A model generated the notes under the pieces. That model made no database searches. It saw only the letters and a program-made list of their open reading frames with translations, and was not told where the DNA came from. Both the position numbers and the translations under genes were made by a program. Below, piece after piece: positions 1-18,410 of a DNA stretch of 64,000 nt; positions within the stretch are counted from its first letter, which is position 1; each line of letters starts with the position of its first letter. Where the stretch lies: positions 984,564 through 1,048,563 of the forward strand of contig CAJINV010000005.1 of the NCBI GenBank assembly GCA_905178155.1, given 5' to 3'. This DNA comes from Amoebophrya sp. A120 (taxonomy: Eukaryota > Protista > Dinoflagellata).

Positions 1-3000
1 TTCTTCGACAAGGGGCACTTCCTGTGTCCCGCGCACCTGCTGTGGCACGAGTTGGTCGAGGACTTGAACTACGGCAACACGCGCGGCCTACTCCAAATGC
101 TGCTGGACGACATGAAGCGCGGGAAGGTGCAGGACCTGACCAGTGCGAGGAAGCTGAAGAACAAGCTGGATCAACATGGGAATGCACCCGGTGGACGAGG
201 TGGACAACCGCGGAGGAATGTATTTTCGCCGAGGAACAACGACTACCTAACATCCGCTGCTGGCGTTACTGGATATAATGATCTTGACCCACAGCAACAA
301 GCAGACAAATCTTCCTTCACCTTCCAAATGAACAATGCCGTTGCCTCCTCCGTGTCCCCGCGCGTTGCCGGCAACCAGCCCTTCCTGGCCGCGGAAGTGT
401 CGGGGCAGTTGTTCGCGGCTTCCGAGGTGTCGCACAAGAACCTCGCGGACTACGTGAAGCAGGATCGCAGAAGAACACGGGAGCTCAGCGGGGACTTGAA
501 GGGCATGTACAACCACCACCGCGAGGGCCAGCACTTCGCGGAGGATTTGAAGGCGATTGGCGTCGACGCGGAGACCGTCGAGCAGCTGGCGAGCGAGGGC
601 TTGTTGCCGGAGAAGGAGGAAGAGGGAGATTTGGTCACGGGGTCGTCCCCGGCCGCTTCTCCCTCGTCGCCCACCGCGGCGGACGATGACCGCAGGTTAG
701 CGAGGCTACTGGCGTCGCCGACGGGTGACACCGCTCCGGCACAGCTGCCGCGCGCCGTCACCCGGCCCATTCACGAAGTGGCTCCGCAGGTTGCGGAGGT
801 TTCCGGCGTCGTGTTGCCGCCACCGCAGCAGGCCGAATTGTCCGGGGTGATTTCCGATCCTCCCCCGCGTGTCGCCGAGCTATCCATGGTGAGTCCGCCA
901 CCGGCAAAACGAACAAAGCCTGTCGGCGCCGCTGCTTTCAAGCGCAAGATGGCCTCGTTCGCTTCCGGCGAGCAGAGCCCAACGTCGCGAGGAAAAGTTC
1001 GCGAAGTATCCGGCGACGGAGTAGATGACATGATGGACCGTTGCCAGCAGCAGCGACGAGAGCCAGATGTTACTAACCCGTTGCCGAACCAGCCAGTCAC
1101 AATACCGACCGCACCCAAGCCGCCGGCGTTCAACAGTTGGCAGCAAAACGAACCCGAGGTGAACGAGATTTCAATGAAGAAGCTGCCAACTATCATGGAA
1201 GAAAGGGACAGGCAAGCGGTTCCGGCGGCAGCCGAACCTGCGCGCGTCGAGGCGCTGAGCTTCGGCCCTACAGTTGCGCAACCCGCGCATCAAGTGGAGG
1301 CGCTGAGTTTTGGCCCGCTCGGGCCCCCGAAGGTGGAGGCGCTGAGTTTCGGCCCAACCACCCTTCCTCCAAAGGTGGAGGCGCTGAGTTACGGTCCGAT
1401 TCCGAAGGCACACGGTGCCTTCCCCTCCGGACTCGCCTCCCCCATGGACATGAGCAACCAGGTGCAGGCCCTGAGCTTCGCTGCCCAACCCGCCTCGCCC
1501 TACGCTGCCGCGGACAGTCTACCAAACGCGGCGGCGCGCACGCCAGTTTATTCCCCAACCGCGTACAAAGTTGGAGATCTTTACGGCAACAATTTCAACA
1601 AGCCCCCGCCCCTAGACCTCTACGATGAGGAGGTGAAGCACCGGCTTTATTTGGAGAGGGAAGCGCTAGAGGAGCGGGTTCGAACCATCCTCACCGGCAT
1701 CATAGAGGCTTGCGCGCAGACGAACTCCGTTTTTCTCCTAGGTCGTCCCTCCGGCGGGAACCGGTTGTCCGAGATTCTGTGCGAGAAGCTGCGCCCCGGG
1801 TGCAACGCGCTGGGGTGTTACACCCTGGACGAGTGCACCACGATCCCCTCCATCGTGTCCCCCAACGTACAGTACAAGTGGCCTACGCAGCGCGAGATCG
1901 AGAACAGCATGTGGAAACACAACTTCCAGGACCCGGCGCGGACGAGGATACCGCAAAAGGTGTTCGAAACGGCTTGCGTGGACGAACGGGAGGAGGTTTA
2001 TGCCGTCGAAAAAACGTACTACCCACTTTTCATATTCATGCAGCAAGTACCAGGCGCGGCTCTCGCCCACAAGGGGCTTTTTGTAGTTTTCTGATAAATT
2101 CACTAAGCAGGATCAGATAGTGGATTGGCGATGTAGCAGCACCAGCTAAGCGCACTAGCTAAGCGCACTAGCTAAGCGCACTAGCTAAGCGCACTAGCTA
2201 AGCGCACTAGCTAAGCGTACTAGCTAAGCGTACGAGCTACGCGCACGAGCTACGCGCACGAGCTACGCGCACTAGCTAAGCGCACTAGCTACGCGCACTA
2301 GCTAAGCGCACTAGCTAAGCGCACTAGCTAAGCGCACTAGCTAAGCGCACTAACTAAGCGCACTAGCTAAGCGCACTAACTGAGCGCACTAGCTCAGCGC
2401 ACTAGCAATCTATGTGTGACTTGTATAGCGAGAGTCACATGATCGTGGCCACGTGGTAAGAACGTTTTTTCGCAGGATGACGTAACCGAAGTAATCAACA
2501 TCCAGTCCGGATTGACGGAGTATGAGAGTACTTGTGTCAAGGACGGCAAAACCATGCTGACGTACGGCGGGTGCATGAAAAACGTGACGCATGTCTTGGT
2601 CTTCGCGACGGACCAGGTATATGATGTTGCTGAGTAGAACATGCACAAGGACAAACAAGGTGATTTTTCACGATCGCGTTATCCCTTTGTAGAATATTGT
2701 CTGAAGTAGAGAAAATAAAGTTGAAATTATCAATCAGGCCCGCAAGAAATTCTGCGAGCTTTTTCTCGAACTTTTCTCGGTCGGCTTGATCGTGGCGGGC
2801 GGAACCGGTCCGATCGCCAAACTCGGGCTGCGCTGCCTCCGCACGGGTTCTCCGCTTATCCTATGTAAAAACATCCCCACCCCAGAGTCAAGATGGGGAT
2901 TTTGCAACACAAACCTTGAAGTTTTGGAAACCACGCATGACAAATTGCAGGCTGTAGTGTAGTGCAGTTTAGCAAGGGAAGCCGCATAACAAATCGATCT

Positions 3001-5822
3001 CCTTATGCTGTTTACAGCATTACAAGTTCCAAAACGCGATTGATAATGCCCCTCATGGGATCGCGCATTACAAACGCTCTCGTGCTTGCAGATCTGCATG
3101 ACAACTCTGTGGTGGGGACGTTTTTACACGGGATACCGCTGTTCATTTTGGAAGGCACGGGCGGTCCGGCCGACGGGTTCGCGGAGCTCATGCGGATTTA
3201 CGAAATGTTCTTTTCCCCGGACGCACTGTACCCCCGCGCGAGTCTGAAGTGGATCCACGAGGAGATCGAGAACCGGTTGACCAAGCGGAACCCTCGGTAC
3301 CACTTCACCTACCACCACTTTTGGACCTTCGCGCGGAACTTCGACGAATCCTTCCGCCACAATTCCGTCATGGTGGTGAATTTATCCTTAGATAACCCGC
3401 AGATGAAGATGCTCCCCGTCGAGCGGCTCCAGGACGAGATCACGCAGGTGATGTCGTCCGTGCACGAAAACTTGGGGGAGATCGGCAATCAAGAATCCGA
3501 GACGCGGGCGATCCAGCACGCGGCCGATTTGTTTGGCGTATTGCTCGACGCGGCGCGAAATTTCCGGTTCGCGGCGACCATTCTGATGACCGTGATCCGC
3601 GTGTTGATTCTCGTCTCCACCACTCTAGCCTTGGCGCAAGTGTGGCTGGAAGCGGCGGAGGACCACCACCCGTTCTTCATGCACAGCAGCGATCCGGGGC
3701 AGGACCGCGCCTGGGCTATTCTCTGGACCCGACGGTTAAACGTGGTACTTCCCTTACTGATCTCCGTCCTCGTCACCTTCAGCGCGAGCTACCGGCCGCT
3801 GCAACGGTTCGTCACCGTTTTCGCCGCGGCGAAACGGATCGAGGGGGAGATTTGGCGGTACCGGGCGCGCGTCGGGGAGTACGTGCCCGTATCGGTGACG
3901 GCGATGAGTTTGAGGAAGAGGAAATCCGCGCGGGAAAACTTCGCGTCCACCGTGGAGGAGATCTGGACCAGCTGCGGGTCCGCGGATTTACGCCTCGGAC
4001 ACTTCTCCCGGTTTTTACCGGATATCTTTTCCTCGGATCGGAACGTGCGCTCCTCCGCGCGGGACGTGCAGGGGCTGCAGTCCTGGAGCAACAATCGGTG
4101 GAGCCGGTCGAGGTCCTGTTTTACCGACGACGGAGATGACCCGCATAACTCCTTCGTCGATCCGCAACGAAACACGAGAAGAAGCTTCGGCCGGTCAAAT
4201 AGCTGGGGAATGAACAAGTTGGGAAAACTTGCCGGAGGCAAGGGCGCGCAATATCAAGACCGGTACGGATACTCTGGTAAAAATCTCGACCCACACGATG
4301 ATTATGGTGGAAGTAGGCGTGAAGCGTTTTACTTCGGAGATGACCAGCACAGCGACCATTCCGGCGACTCGCCTTACCACCACGGCAAAAACCAGGAAGT
4401 AAACAAGCGCAGTAAGTTTTACGGAAAAATGATGACGAACACACGACGCCGGGGCTCCACCGCCGATTTTTTGCTCGATGACAACAAGAAACCTGCCACC
4501 GGCCGGAGTATCAGTTTGAAATTTTTGGAGATGGATAAAGACGATGAAAATAGGTTGAACGCGCCAGTGGTGACGCGGAAGCGGGAATTTTTATCGTACA
4601 AGGCCTGGACGGAGAAGAACCGGGGCCGGGACAAACTTTTGACCGGTGGGGACAAAAACAGTCTCACCTGCTTATCAAGGTGAAAAATGCCCCTACCCCC
4701 GAACGTGGGAGCATTTGTATTGCAAACCTTTCCAAATGAAACATACGCCCTCTTGCATCTTCAGCACCACAGATTTCCAATCGTGAATAGCAAAACTTTG
4801 TATTGCAAAAGACCCCAGCAAAAGTGGCGCTTGTCATGCAAGCGATGCGATACACGCGTAGACTCTGCACCAGAAAGATTCATACTTCTTTCATGCATGA
4901 CAAAAAGTTTGCATCTGGGAACTTCGCATCACAAGTTTTTACGACTTTGGGGGTGGTGGCATTTTTCACTGTAATACTGCTCCGCCGAAGTGTACGTCCG
5001 CGACCGGGTTTTGCCGCAGTTACGGGAGAACGAGCGCATGACGCCGAAGCTGGCGATATGGAATGCAAATATGTCTGGGTCATCTGGAAGAATGCACGTT
5101 TGTCATGCATGTCTGGCATGACTCTTACATCTGTGATGCATGAGCAGGAAAAGGGCCTCGTGCCTGTCATGCAAAAGCGCAGTTTATCATGCGGAAAACG
5201 CAACACTGAGCAGCGCAGACCTTTCTCATGCAAAGCTGTGCATTACAGAGCATTCACGATTCCCAACCAAGTATTACAAGTTTCCAGACCCAGACATATT
5301 TGCAATGCATAGGCGAGACAGCTGTACCAGTTGCAGTTCGCGATCATTGTTTTGAACGCGAGTAACGCCGCGTTGGTGGCATTCGGGGCGGCGGTCTGGG
5401 TGCCGTTGTTACTCGCTCTCGCGTCTTTACTGGAGTACTCGGTAACGTACCAGGCGTTGGAAATGCGGCTGCCGCACATGAACGCCGCGACGAACACGTT
5501 GGTGAAGTTACTTCTCTGGTGGGACGGGCTGACGCGCATCCAGCAGCGGATGCCGGAGAGCAAGGAATTTTTGGTCGATTCGGCGGAAAAAGCGATTTTG
5601 TTACAGCACGACGCGTTCGTCACCGGCGCGCTAGCGTCGCTCCGAGACGCGATCGGGAAGAAGCAGAATCAGAGCAACGACGCAACCGGGGCGGAATTGG
5701 AGGGAAATGGGAATGGGCAGTGGAGAGGAAATTCCTGTGTGCAAGTCGGGAATAGCGGAGGGTTCAAAGGAGGGACGGGTGGGGAGTCGCTAAATCGGAG
5801 CCAGCGGGCGCATAGCATGTAG
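1..5822 (+). CDS. 5'-partial multi-exon gene: low-complexity N-terminus + SLOG/LSDAT (TRPM N-terminal-like) domain + two SLATT-like 2TM domains
   Basis: Frame is open from base 1. GT-AG introns at 2047-2475 and 2617-2737; introners at 2857-3135, 4673-4976 and 5057-5311. The spliced product contains ILTGIIEACAQTNSVFLLG, NVTHVLVF and LIVAGGTGP..RTGSPLFILEGTGGPAD (LSDAT-like), then LPLLISVLVTFSASYRPLQRF..AAKRIEGEIWRYRARVGEY and EVYVRDRVLPQL..LYQLQFAIIV..LLLWWDGLT..LVDSAEKAIL (SLATT-like). Stop at 5820-5822. Confidence 0.75.
2144..2405. repeat. 13-bp tandem repeat (GCTAAGCGCACTA), about 20 copies, intronic
   Basis: Directly visible head-to-tail copies with minor variants (GCTACGCGCACGA), inside intron 2047-2475. 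Confidence 0.95.
2857..3135. mobile_element. Introner, TIR family B (279 bp), TSD CCGCT
   Basis: TATCCTATGTAAAAACATCCCCACC...GGTGGGGACGTTTTTACACGGGATA. CCGCT at 2852-2856 and 3136-3140. Removal gives ..RTGSPLFILEG.. Confidence 0.93.
4673..4976. mobile_element. Introner, TIR family C (304 bp), TSD CTGCT
   Basis: TATCAAGGTGAAAAATGCCCCTACCCCC...GGGGGTGGTGGCATTTTTCACTGTAATA. CTGCT at 4668-4672 and 4977-4981. Removal gives ..SLTCSAEVYVRDR.. Confidence 0.92.
5057..5311. mobile_element. Introner, TIR family A (255 bp), TSD GGCGA
   Basis: TATGGAATGCAAATATGTCTGGGTC...GACCCAGACATATTTGCAATGCATA. GGCGA at 5052-5056 and 5312-5316. Removal gives ..MTPKLARQLYQLQF.. Confidence 0.93.
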
Positions 5823-6311: not shown

Positions 6312-9300
6312 ATGACCACCGAAGAGGGGCTCGGCGGCGCAACGCCGTCGGCTTTTCCAGAACCGCTAAGCGTCGTCGACGTGGTTGCCACTGAAGATGT
6401 CACAATTACGGAAGATAGGCCAATCGAAGGCGAGCTTACCCAGGCCGCCGTGTCCGACACCGAGAAGCCGGCAAGTGAAAACCCGGCCAGCGAAATGCCC
6501 ACCGATGCAGCCGGGGCTCTGGGTTTTTGCAAGGAGAACCAGGCCCAGTTTTTGTCTGGTATCACCGTCGCATTGGCCATGATCCCTGAGGCCGTGGCGT
6601 TTTCCTTCGTCGCGAAGGTGGAACCGCCAGTGGCTCTCACGGCAGCCTGGATCATGTGCTTTTTCACCGCCGTAGCGGGCGGCAGGCCAGGTAAAAAAAA
6701 CATTTTGCCACCCGGTCGAGTTCCACGACCAGTGCTCATAAGATAGTTAGGTGCAACATGGGCACCGGGCAAGTTGCAACTCTCGAACCCACTATCACAA
6801 CAAAAAACCAGGTATGATTTCCGGTGCCACCGGTTCCATGGCGGTGATCATGACGTCCATAGTCACTGACGAAGGGGTGGAGTACCTTTTCTGGTATCCT
6901 GTGTAAAAACGTCCCCACCCCAGAGTTGTCATGTAGATTTGCAATTGCAGGAACATTTGTAATGCGCGTCCCCAAGGGAGGCATTTCCAATCGTGTTTTG
7001 GCATTTGTAATGCTGCAAACAGGATAAGCAGATGGATTTGTGATGTGGCTGTCCTTGCTAACATGCACTACACTACGGACTGCAACTTGTCATGCGTGGG
7101 TCCCAAAGCTTCTGGGTTTGTAATGCTACGCTCCCAACTTGACTATGGGGTGGGGACGTTTTTGCATATGATATCTGGGCCGTGATGTTTTGCGGTTTGT
7201 TTCAAATCCTGCTCGGGTTCGCGGGCATCCACAAAGCACTCTCCCTGGTCACCTTCCCTGTCAAGATCGGGTTTCTCAACGGGCTCGCACTGGTGATCGG
7301 GAAGGCGCAGCTGGAATCCTTTTTGATCCCGCACGGGGAGACCACCGAGAAAACCGAGCATTTGGAGATCGTGGACTTCGTGTTGGCGACCAGCAACTAC
7401 GTGAAAGCAGACAAACTGATCGTCATGCTGGTACTAATAGTATAGCAACAGCTAGCTATAGGTTTTTTTCTGGAGAAATTCCGTCATAGCAAGTTTGATG
7501 GTTTCAGCATTCTTGCAATGGTTTCGGCGACAGCAAAACTCTTTTTGTCCTCTTCCTGTGCATTTTTTGCATCTGCTCTTCAAAGAGGATTCATTTTCCT
7601 GTTCCAAGCGAAAGAAGTATCAAACCCGCGGCCTAAAAAATAAGGTCCTTTCCTTCATCGCCCTGGGCATCAACTTTCTTCCCGAAAAGTTTCAAAAATA
7701 CCCCCTCGCGCTTATCTCCATCGTTTTCGTCACCGTCCTGGAGCACGCCTGCGTCCGCACGTTCATTCTGCCGGATGAGGGAACTACGCTCGTGGAGGAC
7801 ATGGCGAATCTGAAAGGGAACTTCCTCGAGGTGGTGTTTAGCAAGTACGACATGCCGAATCCCTTCAACGACGGGGGTGCACTCGCGTCGACGATTCTCA
7901 CCGCGGTTTATTTGTGCGTGATCGGGCTCACCGAGTCCCTGATGACGTTGGAGAAGATCGACGAGATGCTGCCCGACTCCCCGCCCGGAGATGCGAGACG
8001 GGAGGTTTTGGCGCAGGGCGGCGGCAATTTGATCTGTGGGTTCTTCGGGTCCATGGGCGGTTGCGCCATGATCGGGCAGGCCATGATCAACGTGCGGAAT
8101 GGCGGCACGAAGAGGATAGCCGGTATGACGGCCGGTGTGGGCACGCTTCTGATTATGGTGGCCATCAGTCCGGTTATAGGAAAAATTCCGGTTGGCAGTT
8201 TGGTCGGAGTGATGTGGTATAATTTTTTCCAGCTACGAAGATCATCAAGATCACACATCAAGAATTACTATCGCTTCGCATCTAAAATGTCCGAAAACGA
8301 GTACAATTGCACCTCCTACTCATAACAGGTGCGTGTCGTATCACACCTGGGAGAAAAAGACCCACATCCTGTTCTACGAGGCCTTTACGGGCAAGCCCTG
8401 GAAGCCGATTGAAGTATACGTCGTCAGCGAGGAGGCCGTGACCCCCGCGGTGGAGTCTCCCGCAACGACCGAAGGCGGAAATAGAAATCAGCTGCTGCCG
8501 CCGGGCGGCGATAATGTGGTGCGGGTGATCTCCGTCAGCAAGGAGGCACTGGCGCAAGCCGACGTAGGCCGATCGGGCTCCAAGGACCCACCCCCAGCGG
8601 ACGACTCGTTTGGGCAACCGCCCAGGTCCCAGCCCAGTAAGGAAACGGTCGGCAGCAAAGGATCGGAAATATCATCATGTACAGATAGATATTTTTTTGG
8701 GTACCGATTTTTTTTTGTTGTACTACAAATACAAACAGAATTATGAGGAGTATAGCAGGTATGCTGGTTCTTGTTTGTTCTTCGATTGCGACAGCGGCGC
8801 ACGTGAACAAAATCGAATGCACAATGAATTCTACTACCAAAATGCAAAAATAGACTCCGCCGGCGGCACGCGCGTGGTCCGCAAGCGGTCCAAGGGACAC
8901 TACCACCACGGCGTCGCGGGCGAGCAGAGTCCCGCGGCTAAGCGCGAAGACATCGTTTCGCATTTGGACAACGTGGTCGTCACCCCGGCGGCGCTGCGGG
9001 ACCGATCGCGGCTGTCCAAGGAAGAAGCGGAGGACGTTATCGAAAGGAAAAAGCCCCCCTCCCCGTATCAAACCGGAACTTCTGGCGCTGGATTTGCGTA
9101 CACAGATCAGCTTTGTCTTGCTGGAGAGGACTGCTGGCCCATATCAAGCCTTTGTAGGGAGATTTTGGCCTAGGCGCTTAGAATGAGAAACGTCTGCGCT
9201 GTAGGCTCACCAGCATCACAAACCCCCTGCGTAAATGCGGCGGCGCCTGTGGAGTTGCCTTCTTGCAAGACAGAGATGGTTTGTGGTCGACAATCAGCAT

Positions 9301-10158
9301 TGCAAATCTTCTGCGGCGTGCCTTTTCGATATTGGGAGGGGGAGTTTTTCCTTTTGATAGACGTGCAGCTCGGTTTGGCGGAGCTTTCCCGCTTCGACTG
9401 CTTCATCGTGGTAGTGGTCACCATCGGGTATGAATTGCAAAAATGTCTGGGTCTGGAAGATTCTGACAGTTGTCACGCACGTTTTGCATGAGCCATGATG
9501 TCTGTGATGCATATACTAGCAATACAGATTGTTTGAGGGCTTCTTGATGCCTATTCCGCATCACAAATGCCTTCTCATCGTAGCAAAAATTGCATTCCCT
9601 TCGCTACTCATGCAATACAGATTTTTTTGGAATCCAAAGGCAGCATCACAAGTTGCAATCTTCCAGACCCAGACATATTTGCAATGCATATCGGGACGCT
9701 GATTACCAATCTCGCCATCGCGGTCGCGGCGGGAATCGTGATGTCGAAGCTCATATCCTAAGTAAAAACGTCCCCACCTCAGAGTTGTCACGCAAACTCT
9801 GCTGGCTGAAAATATTTCTCATTGCGGAGCTCCTCGAGAAGCATTTTCTAGTCGTGTTTCGTAGTTTGTCATGCTTTAAAAATCAGCATTATATGCTAGA
9901 TCTGTGATGCTGCTGAACTACCTGAGCAGCATTACACTACGAGGCCAAACTTGTCATGTGCAACAGCCAAAGCTGGTTGATTTGTCTAGCAGATATCTCA
10001 TCTTGATTCTGGTGTGGGGACGCCTTTACTCAGGATAGCTCAACAGCTTGTACCTGCAAAAGTACGGCGACGACAAGCCCGCCCCGGCGGACGCGAGTAC
10101 GAAGCCAGCGGTGGGCACACCCGTGGCGCAGGACCCGGAATCGCTGGCGCCGAATTGA
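6312..10158 (+). CDS. SulP/SLC26 family anion (sulfate/bicarbonate) transporter, multi-exon
   Basis: [90 protein letters not shown] and [10 protein letters not shown] are SulP motifs. Four GT-AG introns and four introners. Stop TGA at 10156-10158. Confidence 0.9.
6895..7173. mobile_element. Introner, family B (279 bp), TSD TCTGG, opposite orientation to 2857-3135
   Basis: TATCCTGTGTAAAAACGTCCCCACCCCA...TGGGGTGGGGACGTTTTTGCATATGATA. Removal gives ..EYLFWAVMFCG.. Confidence 0.93.
9038..9359. mobile_element. Introner, family D (322 bp), TSD GACGT
   Basis: TATCGAAAGGAAAAAGCCCCCCTCCCC...GGGAGGGGGAGTTTTTCCTTTTGATA. Removal gives ..[13 protein letters not shown].. Confidence 0.92.
9429..9690. mobile_element. 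Introner, family A (262 bp), TSD TCGGG
   Basis: TATGAATTGCAAAAATGTCTGGGTCTGGAAGA...TCTTCCAGACCCAGACATATTTGCAATGCATA. Removal gives ..[13 protein letters not shown].. Confidence 0.94.
9754..10037. mobile_element. Introner, family B (284 bp), TSD GCTCA
   Basis: TATCCTAAGTAAAAACGTCCCCAC...GTGGGGACGCCTTTACTCAGGATA. Removal gives ..[12 protein letters not shown].. Confidence 0.92.
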
Positions 10159-11275
10159 GGAGATTTATTTGTTTCCGGAAATTAAGTTTCGCATGATCCA
10201 TCATCCAGATGTGCTAATATGCAAAATAAGGCCACCAGTCGTGGACAGTTATCCGTCGAGAGAGAGAGAGAGAGGAGCTCCTAATGTACTACTCCCTTAC
10301 TTGTTTTACAAGATATACTCGCAAGCAGGCGGTAAATGTAAAGTTACTGTAAAATAAATTCGATATTGAATTGATCTAATTATCAATCGGTGACTTTCAT
10401 CGCCGACCGCTGCTTTAGAACCCTATACAGAAGTATTTTGGAACTTTTCTCTTTCACAGTTCCTTGTCCTTACCTGGGAACTTTTGCAAAATTGTATGAT
10501 GGATTCGTTTCCTGAGGTGAGGAAAATGTTATCTACTTCCGGTCAACTACAAAATGCAGGATGATGTGCTACTCGTTGGTATTAGAAGCTCTGGTTGTGT
10601 GTGCCGTGCCCTAGACAGCGGCCGAAGCATCATTGTGCTGGTGCATGTACTTTCTTTTCTTGCGCGCCTCGTATGCACACCGCGTGCGGTAGTTTTAACG
10701 TCACGTGCTGTCTACTTGCAGTGGAAAAAATAGGTCAGCGGTGCAGGAGAGAGTGTTGAAATTCAAGTTCACAAAAATCTGCTTGTCGTTATATTTCTTT
10801 GTACGTAGAAGTTCTAGTTTCGTATTCGTTCGGTGCGGTCAGTTCGTGCAGTAAAACAACCACTCGTTCTTCACACAGAAGCTGCAAATAGAATCTTTCG
10901 TCCTGTCGTGCACCTATTTTTTCGTCGCGTCGTGCAGGAATGGAAATGGTGGCCATAAGTAACGGCGATAATATCATGCTTTGGTCCGTGACCGGTCACA
11001 GCTTTGCCGTACTTAGCGCATGCTTTGTTTTCTGAAGTTCAGCTGCGATTATACCCTGCCACGTGAACGATGCCATTTCAATTGCTTTTTCTCCGTGTCA
11101 TGAGCTCAGCTTAACGACGGATTAATTTGATTCCCACCCCGCGAAGGTATGTACATTTGTGAAGATGTCTCTTTTACGACAGCGCAAAAGCAATATATGA
11201 TTCTGTTTTTTTCCTAAACTAAAACAAGCCATTCAGCCTGCCACGACTTCAGCGTCAGCCTTGATTTATCGTAGT

Positions 11276-18310: not shown

Positions 18311-18410
18311 NNNNNNNNNNNNNNNNNNNNNNNNNNNNNNNNNNNNNNNNNNNNNNNNNNNNNNNNNNNNNNNNNNNNNNNNNNNNNNNNNNNNNNNNNN
18401 NNNNNNNNNN
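18311..18410. other. Assembly gap (100 N)
   Basis: Run of exactly 100 N. Confidence 1.

Follow-up and report, generated by a model that had tools for sequence, protein, structure and literature searches.

A spliced gene of Amoebophrya sp. A120 for a SLOG-SLATT-SLATT protein, a candidate membrane effector in a protist

Introduction

What does a protist protein do that joins a SLOG domain of the TRPM-channel type to two SLATT membrane modules, an architecture already catalogued in bacteria? The question is raised by a 64,000-nucleotide (nt) stretch of the dinoflagellate Amoebophrya sp. A120 (contig CAJINV010000005.1, positions 984,564 to 1,048,563, forward strand), here called the window, the first 5822 nt of which hold all but the beginning of such a gene. 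Its product, a database protein of 1587 residues referred to as P0001, is with near certainty a SLOG-SLATT-SLATT protein. It represents a protist branch, apparently not described before, of a family known by prediction from bacteria and, on our analysis, is likely to be a signal-triggered pore of bacterial immune ancestry.

Domain architecture of the encoded protein

The three domains occur in one chain in the order SLOG-SLATT-SLATT, as in a family of bacterial fusions. A profile of 41 relatives (A1, built without P0001) matches the N-terminal domain of TRPM5 at an E value of 7.8e-13, as well as TRPM7 (1.4e-10), sea-anemone TRPM2 (4.8e-10), TRPM1, TRPM8 and TRPM3, all matches being limited to the N-terminal domain (MHR1/2) of these channels. 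Fold comparison was done with AlphaFold models of the relative P0008 (predicted local distance difference test score, pLDDT, 77.6) and of residues 677-1535 of the window protein (pLDDT 73.7). TRPMs come first in Foldseek for both models, with best E values of 1.2e-7 (P0008) and 6.3e-4 (window protein). In the VIA search, the top nine rows for the window model are all TRPMs (7aov_B: Z 12.8, root-mean-square deviation (rmsd) 3.5, 225 residues aligned), and the P0008 model matches 7aov_B with Z 17.9 (rmsd 5.6, 290 aligned). TRPM rows score Z 9.6-13.3 with the window model against 8.7 for LOG-type proteins, and Z 12.0-18.2 against up to 10.0 with the P0008 model; the SLOG fold is closer to TRPM than to LOG or DprA in both. 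An LSDAT score of 0.83 in the Atlas is taken as a lead only.

Each SLATT module is predicted to form a long helical hairpin with two hydrophobic segments, the Kyte-Doolittle maxima of the four helices being 2.27, 1.86, 1.67 and 1.88. The isolated piece gives a SLATT match in Pfam (PF14015 / PF18181) at 5.8e-4, and 47 of 53 relatives scanned match DUF4231, SLATT_1 or both at E <= 0.01. LSDAT is matched at that threshold by 10 of the 53, with one (P0078) passing the cut-off. The Pfam scan shows no ion-transport family such as the six-helix TRP pore domain; the membrane part aligns with SLATT instead. Neither model had a solved SLATT structure as a prominent match in the fold searches, which is not evidence of a new fold. 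The protein thus shares its N-terminal SLOG subtype, by profile and by fold, with the TRPM channels (TRPM2, 5, 7 and 8, and the choanoflagellate TRPM2 chanzyme), from which it differs by two SLATT hairpins in place of the six-helix TRP pore and by deletion of the loop after a conserved His. The succession of an LSDAT-type SLOG domain and two SLATT modules, proposed in a preliminary description of this DNA made from the sequence alone, holds at the level of profile and fold, and the motifs quoted there were found in the protein.

On the plus strand of the window, the end of SLOG strand 1 and its loop are encoded at 1-33 (residues 135-145; residues about 85-134 lie upstream of the window). An insertion of about 530 residues follows (34-1626, residues 146-676), mostly rich in Ala, Pro and Ser and with four short repeats at 1237-1397. 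The main body of the TRPM/LSDAT-type SLOG domain extends over four exons (1627-3459, residues 677-990) and retains His836, Gly865-Gly866 and a TGGxAD loop (residues 890-895). SLATT-1, of the DUF4231 type, lies at 3487-3984 (residues about 1000-1165), with predicted transmembrane helices TM1 at 3577-3645 and TM2 at 3721-3789. A linker predicted to be disordered (3985-4665, residues 1166-1392; pLDDT < 50 over model residues 507-695) leads to SLATT-2, of the SLATT_1 type (4666-5648, residues about 1393-1530), with predicted TM3 at 5328-5384 and TM4 at 5388-5444.

The insertion in the SLOG domain is peculiar to this protein. Between two SLOG anchor columns there are 570 residues here against a median of 66 among 66 proteins, the next longest being 278 in P0041. 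Among 156 proteins compared, 22 others have an N-terminus that matches residues 70-210 (independent E value, i-E, < 0.01), and the N-terminal part that holds these residues aligns with the first strands of TRPM domains; residues 210-680 match none of the others in that set. The one match of P0001 in a phmmer search against the PDB, of part of the insertion (442-636, residues 282-346) to the CARD of CARD8 (E 0.031), is weak and probably due to chance.

A further structure matched by the SLOG model is chain 6A of PDB entry 9nw3 (256 residues, ciliary-tip central pair; Z 12.3, rmsd 4.5, 236 aligned), apparently a stand-alone LSDAT-like domain in cilia, judging from the model comparison.

Gene structure and splicing

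Once five inserts are removed, a single open frame runs to the stop codon at 5820-5822, and an early stop results if any one of them is kept in frame. The preliminary description placed the gene at 1630-5822; the end stands, while the start does not: frame 1 is uninterrupted from position 1 of the window through 2094, and P0001 adds 134 residues upstream. The exons, all on the plus strand, are exon A at 1-1995 (P0001 residues 135-799, open at the left window end, with the end of SLOG strand 1, the insertion and the next SLOG helix and strands), B at 2482-2616 and C at 2738-2856 (both placed by contig joints), D at 3141-4672 (end of SLOG, SLATT-1 and linker), E at 4982-5056 (75 nt, holding the YxxxR motif of SLATT-2) and F at 5317-5822.

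All five joints (1995>2482, 2613>2735, 2851>3136, 4667>4977 and 5051>5312) are present in contigs of runs X1 and X2, which come from the same sample and whose status as RNA is a guess by the tool; none of the runs that cover the stretch is recorded as RNA. One X1 contig of 4733 nt carries all exons, from beyond the left window end to 6050. The coding sequence assembled from the joints matches residues 135-1587 of P0001 exactly; P0001 is this gene's own product. The expectation that gene callers would fragment the gene was mistaken, the database model being complete and in accord with the contig joints; our own splicing agrees with it everywhere but at insert 1. Contigs of runs X5 and X6 show the insert borders unspliced and cover 30 of 30 bins, as DNA would, and X1-X3 leave some intergenic bins uncovered. 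The raw RNA runs X7, X8 and X9 gave 0 reads on the stretch and hence have no bearing on splicing.

Insert 2 (2617-2737, plus strand, 121 nt) is a canonical GT-AG intron. Inserts 3 (2857-3140, 284 nt), 4 (4673-4981, 309 nt) and 5 (5057-5316, 260 nt), to which no strand is assigned, each consist of an introner with terminal inverted repeats, starting with TAT and ending with ATA (2857-3135, 4673-4976 and 5057-5311), together with one copy of the 5-nt direct repeat that flanks it. Insert 1 (1996-2481, likewise without strand) measures 486 nt, since the coding sequence assembled from the contig joints equals P0001 residues 135-1587; its cut is uncertain by 2 nt. It is an aged, decayed introner, with 20 of 28 terminal bases matching and an interior occupied by a 13-bp tandem array of 20.6 copies (2139-2406). 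The tally within the window is therefore one intron and four introners: the five inserts, the three introners with terminal inverted repeats and one GT-AG intron had been seen correctly in the preliminary description, and the other of its two introns is the aged introner. The GT-AG intron at 2047-2475 that it took for insert 1 keeps the frame and is rejected, as the contigs show the other joint. The exact splicing of insert 1 persists though its direct repeats mismatch now, and a joint fixed to a 2-nt span may help to define the splice rule of such elements. Amoebophrya introners have been described as non-canonical introns that end in inverted repeats, the exon borders being spanned by direct repeats of 3-5 nt (PMC7789003); the inserts found here resemble them in architecture only, and add no new feature.

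Bacterial counterparts

A tblastn search with P0063 retrieved two plasmid records, both of whose proteins are LSDAT_prok-DUF4231-SLATT_1 fusions above the Pfam cut-off. A scan of species genomes, one of its two fetching patterns being the motif HSHF, gave 71 bacterial loci, of which 55 were analysed after 16 had been dropped by eye as short, partial or near-duplicate. In 29 of these the product is a long fusion, and in the other 26 it is LSDAT alone; the three domains were confirmed with Pfam in five of five fused proteins scanned. With hhalign, the protist profile A1 aligns collinearly with 31 bacterial fusions for 521 columns (E 3.9e-57, probability 100). The likeness to bacterial LSDAT-SLATT fusions noticed earlier holds at the profile and fold level. 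When a set of 167 proteins is searched with the bacterial fusion profile, P0001 is matched at E 3.4e-37; two stretches of it are aligned, at i-E 1e-16 and 3e-20, and there are SLATT motifs in common.

The bacterial fusions, such as WP_341472297.1 of Ca. Chlorohelix allophototropha and WP_243803067.1 of Hymenobacter tibetensis, thus have the same domains in the same order, the same SLATT motifs and four hydrophobic helices. In contrast, the protein studied here is eukaryotic, spliced and 1587 residues long against about 560-750; its pocket motifs are eroded, its conserved basic residues differ and a TIR neighbour was not found in the window. For the domain families themselves, PMC13143021, PMC7159879 and 10.64898/2026.04.29.721553 give credit to Burroughs et al. 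2015.

A tree was built on 303 SLATT columns for 99 of 104 rows (P0014, P0024, P0025, P0029 and P0039 were dropped for gaps); it was confined to SLATT because hmmalign failed to place the bacterial SLOG on the protist profile. The 66 protist-type and 33 bacterial-type rows are split with support 100/99. The tree is unrooted, for want of an outgroup, and does not show the direction of transfer; that the protist family originated from bacteria is what we infer. Two of the phmmer hits, P0143 and P0147, group with the bacterial proteins and pass the LSDAT_prok model; they were taken out of the counts for the tree and of the pattern and basic-residue counts given below, and are still within the 73-row set used for conservation, anchor-column, identity and hydrophobicity figures. 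P0146 sits on the protist side of the tree, next to the branch between protists and bacteria; it keeps a TRPM-like strand-1 loop, and both LSDAT models match it above the cut-off. The bacterial-type P0147 has two LSDAT matches ahead of its SLATT pair.

A TIR profile built from four Pfam-confirmed neighbours finds a TIR gene no more than 5 kb away from 7 of the 29 fused bacterial genes (examples are L016, L026 and L029) and from 14 of the 26 that encode LSDAT alone. These counts are without a background control and include the seeds of the profile, and related loci are not independent. TPR-S genes occur near stand-alone LSDAT in 9 of 26 loci (L033, L035, L038, L040, L042, L044, L045, L046 and L048) against none of the 29 fused loci, and some stand-alone LSDAT genes are near patatin or CHAT genes. 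Two bacterial open reading frames, called mechanically and with provisional starts, carry extra N-terminal domains: an M50B peptidase (L016:3642-6713) and a PNPOx-like domain (L032:4269-6692).

Pocket motifs and conserved basic residues

The SLOG loops of the 31 bacterial fusions are strongly conserved: G-A-A after strand 1 (100, 84 and 94%), D-G-G-T (94, 94, 100 and 87%), W-G-x-E (94, 84 and 84% for its fixed positions) and also G-S-G-x-x-A-D. Counted as patterns, DGGT..G[VI] is present in 27 of the 31 bacterial proteins, an aromatic-Gly-x-Glu motif in 18 and G[ST]GRxA in 12, whereas none of the three occurs in any of 71 protist-type proteins. The sole pattern to persist is [ST]G[GR]x[AS]D, in 28 of 31 bacterial and 16 of 71 protist-type proteins, the latter including P0001 (TGGxAD). 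HSHF occurs in 31 of 31 bacterial proteins, a count that is partly circular because HSHF is one of the two search patterns for this set. Over 73 rows, His836 is conserved at 88%, Gly866 at 81%, Thr890 at 74% and Gly891 at 84%, and the protist profile A1 lacks the loop that follows the conserved His in TRPM5 and TRPM7. Median identities for SLOG, SLATT-1 and SLATT-2 are 17, 23 and 26% in protists and 43, 39 and 44% in bacteria, figures that come from different alignments and whose gap may be inflated by selection on SLATT score.

Conserved basic residues flank the membrane helices of the SLATT modules. R1106, R1125, R1127 and R1403 are common to both groups, with Lys or Arg at these positions in 90-100% of the protist-type rows and in 73-100% of those of bacterial type; with the bacterial rows aligned to the protist profile, R1148, R1470, R1497 and K1502 are basic in 79-94% of protist-type against 4-25% of bacterial-type rows.

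These comparisons suggest that the SLOG sensor has most likely been remodelled, with loss of the classic nucleotide-pocket motifs. The trigger would probably be other than the classic one, because the SLOG domain is without those motifs. The earlier proposal of a nucleotide-gated channel is thereby weakened as regards the SLOG route: the glycine loops and the aromatic-Gly-x-Glu motif are gone here and in all 71 protist-type relatives, while the SLOG fold itself is retained.

Relatives in protists

At E <= 0.001, a phmmer search with residues 677-1535 against 1.84 billion representatives gave 946 proteins, of which the best 150 were listed; at 1e-10 there are 265, and at 1e-30 there are 37. Word-based homologue searches returned P0001 only, and are uninformative, as the full HMMER scan gave 946. 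Named organisms among 30 clusters looked up are Mataza sp. (Cercozoa), an Acanthoecidae transcriptome, Triparma columacea (a parmalean), the diatom Dactyliosolen fragilissimus, and the dinoflagellates Polykrikos kofoidii and Gymnodinium smaydae (two clusters), with the reservation that the organism labels of transcriptomes may include prey or contaminants. At least two distant copies of the family are present in one dinoflagellate. An Atlas cluster labelled eukaryotic (DUF4231 45%, LSDAT_prok 10%), the phylum of which is known for two members only, is a further lead. Extra N-terminal domains, trypsin-like in P0014 and LRR in P0039, are seen in protist relatives.

One relative, P0041, is encoded by an intronless gene on two contigs of 29-31% GC, one of them by its name from a Tara virus-size fraction. 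The P0041 gene (L001:4103-7225, L002:1165-5444) adjoins a gene for a WWE-RING-Deltex protein and another Cys-rich open reading frame, and P0034 and P0053 cluster with P0041 in the tree (100/100). The gene context makes a giant-virus origin of this group plausible, as a lead. No relative was found in IMG/VR contigs with P0041 or alignment A4 as the query, and a BFVD fold search for the group gave 0 matches at E <= 0.001.

No description of a eukaryotic SLOG-SLATT-SLATT family was found in the titles and passages of the literature searched; Burroughs et al. 2015 or its supplements may list such fusions. A SLATT-domain gene that changes with infection treatment is noted for Gephyrocapsa huxleyi in one preprint (10.64898/2026.09.30.755861), and SLATT genes are noted in polinton-like viruses (10.1101/2025.10.09.676808). 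In the part available of a preprint on choanoflagellate TRP channels, SLOG is mentioned in TRP channels only (10.64898/2026.06.15.732245). The N-terminal SLOG of TRPM is thought to have been gained from bacteria by fusion in an early eukaryote (PMC13143021).

Candidate function

We favour, at a probability of roughly 45%, a signal-triggered membrane effector, the trigger of which would be read at the SLATT modules or by the remodelled SLOG domain, and not in the classic pocket. The commitment to an effector comes from the literature on SLATT. SLATT proteins are predicted nucleotide-responsive pore formers (PMC7159879, PMC9503650), DRT10 defence needs SLATT (10.1101/2025.10.16.682844, 10.64898/2026.04.29.721553), and type VII Thoeris, composed of TIR and SLATT, is toxic once cyclic ADP-ribose is supplied, its SLATT effector being modelled as an oligomer with basic pockets between protomers (10.64898/2025.12.03.692087). 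The immune or cell-death role put forward in the preliminary description is one that we infer from these other SLATT systems and from the bacterial context.

In the mechanism we propose, an anionic signal, either an NAD-derived nucleotide or an anionic lipid, would bind the basic residues beside the membrane helices, as modelled for the SLOG-less ThsH of type VII Thoeris. The diverged SLOG domain would either restrain the protein or serve as a sensor whose specificity has changed. The SLATT hairpins of several subunits, in a predicted oligomer, would assemble into a pore, the membrane would be permeabilised under infection or stress, and ion leak or cell death would be the outcome. ThsH, likewise annotated as a SLATT membrane effector, has modelled basic cytosolic pockets where the protein studied here has conserved basic residues; it consists of SLATT only and adjoins a TIR gene, in contrast to the two SLATT modules and SLOG domain found here, the two being compared by description only (10.64898/2025.12.03.692087). 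The fusion of a SLOG sensor with an effector is also seen in ThsA of type I Thoeris (SIR2-SLOG; 10.1101/2021.01.06.425286), the effector of which is a NADase and not a membrane module. ThsA appears in the VIA search of P0008 with Z 8.1 (rmsd 4.7, 172 aligned).

Several results weigh against a signal-triggered effector, or against the comparisons on which it is built. Pfam places DUF4231 and SLATT_1 correctly on P0001, with scores below the cut-off (DUF4231: E 0.02, 15.8 bits against 24.7; SLATT_1: E 0.044, 14.3 bits against 26.3), and LSDAT (PF18171 / PF18139) has no match in P0001 at E <= 10. TM3 and TM4 are moderately hydrophobic only, TM4 exceeding 1.6 in 46% of 68 rows. The fetching of bacterial proteins by HSHF and a protist set ranked largely on SLATT-2 score partly bias the motif contrast, and the contrast in basic residues depends on how the bacterial rows align to the protist profile. 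Instead of making up a ligand site, the conserved Arg and Lys may have a structural role in salt bridges with Glu1120 and Glu1510, which are conserved as well. No TIR was found within the flank examined in 22 of 29 fused bacterial loci, nor in the six frames of the window with our own bacterial TIR profile, although introns could hide one and a partner need not adjoin. The literature yielded no experiment on any family member.

A domesticated housekeeping membrane protein, such as an ion channel or a scaffold of an organelle or flagellar membrane, with the SLOG domain in a structural or allosteric part and with no role in defence, is somewhat unlikely and the alternative that survives best. 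It would fit the wide occurrence of the family in free-living protists, transcripts in three runs with no known challenge (the conditions are not on record), a sulfate permease as the neighbouring gene and the stand-alone SLOG-like chain in the ciliary tip (9nw3_6A). It fits less well with a family so divergent (median identity 17-26%), with distant copies in a single dinoflagellate, with N-terminal fusions that vary between members and with a member on an intronless virus-fraction contig. This combination of features would suit conflict proteins, and is no proof of them.

A classic nucleotide-gated channel, in which ADP-ribose (ADPR) or its cyclic isomer in the SLOG cleft opens the SLATT pore, as in TRPM2 and ThsA, has the retained fold in its favour, together with the conserved His836, Gly866 and Thr890-Gly891, the TGGxAD loop of P0001, bacterial relatives that keep all motifs and adjoin TIR genes, and P0146, a protist-side protein close to the bacterial branch of the tree, which still matches LSDAT_prok with 51.7 bits. 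Human TRPM2 holds ADPR with Y295, R302, R358 and a loop (PMC6759353). In the protists, the three pocket motifs are gone from every protist-type row and the loop after the conserved His is deleted; SLOG is their least conserved part, which is not so in bacteria, and here about 530 residues are inserted in the strand-1 loop. We take the TRPM2 contacts to be equivalent to the pocket motifs, with the alignments to TRPM5 and TRPM7 as the sole support. ADPR gating through the SLOG pocket is, as far as these sequences tell, doubtful.

That the SLOG domain is an enzyme, namely a phosphoribohydrolase of the LOG kind for which the SLATT helices provide the membrane anchor, is highly improbable: LOG proteins do turn up in both fold searches (Z 8.7-10), but they rank below TRPM, and few polar residues are conserved in SLOG. 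A decaying or mis-joined gene, which the long low-complexity insertions, four transposon-like inserts and subthreshold Pfam scores might have suggested, is already largely refuted by the open frame, the exact splicing of five inserts in two runs and the retention of family-conserved residues.

The signal-triggered effector may be part of a longer history, which as a whole we hold to be unlikely: a bacterial, TIR-linked SLOG-SLATT-SLATT effector would have entered eukaryotes whole and early, spread in marine protists, reached a giant-virus-like contig at least once, and would now act as a nucleotide-triggered death pore, with sensing moved from the SLOG pocket to SLATT. If true, this would be an unrecognised class of eukaryotic death pores, and eukaryotes would have put the TRPM sensor domain to use a second time, here together with the pore that it came with from bacteria. 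In several protist groups, the SLOG subtype of TRPM is still fused to the SLATT modules that accompany it in bacteria, and the family offers a testable candidate for cell-autonomous defence in protists, where, to our knowledge, few effectors are known. The bacterial proteins with an intact pocket, P0146 between, and the eroded forms make a natural series in which the ligands of LSDAT domains and the opening of SLATT modules can be studied. The finding carries limited weight because the architecture was already catalogued in bacteria and no demonstrated function of any member was found.

Surroundings in the window

Downstream on the plus strand, at 6312-10633, lies a gene for a sulfate permease, with Pfam PF00916 recognised in three exons; it also contains introners with terminal inverted repeats and is covered by a spliced contig of run X3. 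The assembly has a gap of 100 N at 18311-18410. Under strict criteria, 13 TAT...ATA elements flanked by direct repeats of 5 nt were identified within 2857-37761, nine of which lie in the first 13 kb of the window. In the DNA-like runs, the depth summed over the elements exceeds that of unique sequence by a factor of hundreds to thousands, so that they must be repetitive in the genome, although this factor is not a copy number. The elements at 2857-3137 and 6893-7173 are 82% alike and lie in opposite orientation.

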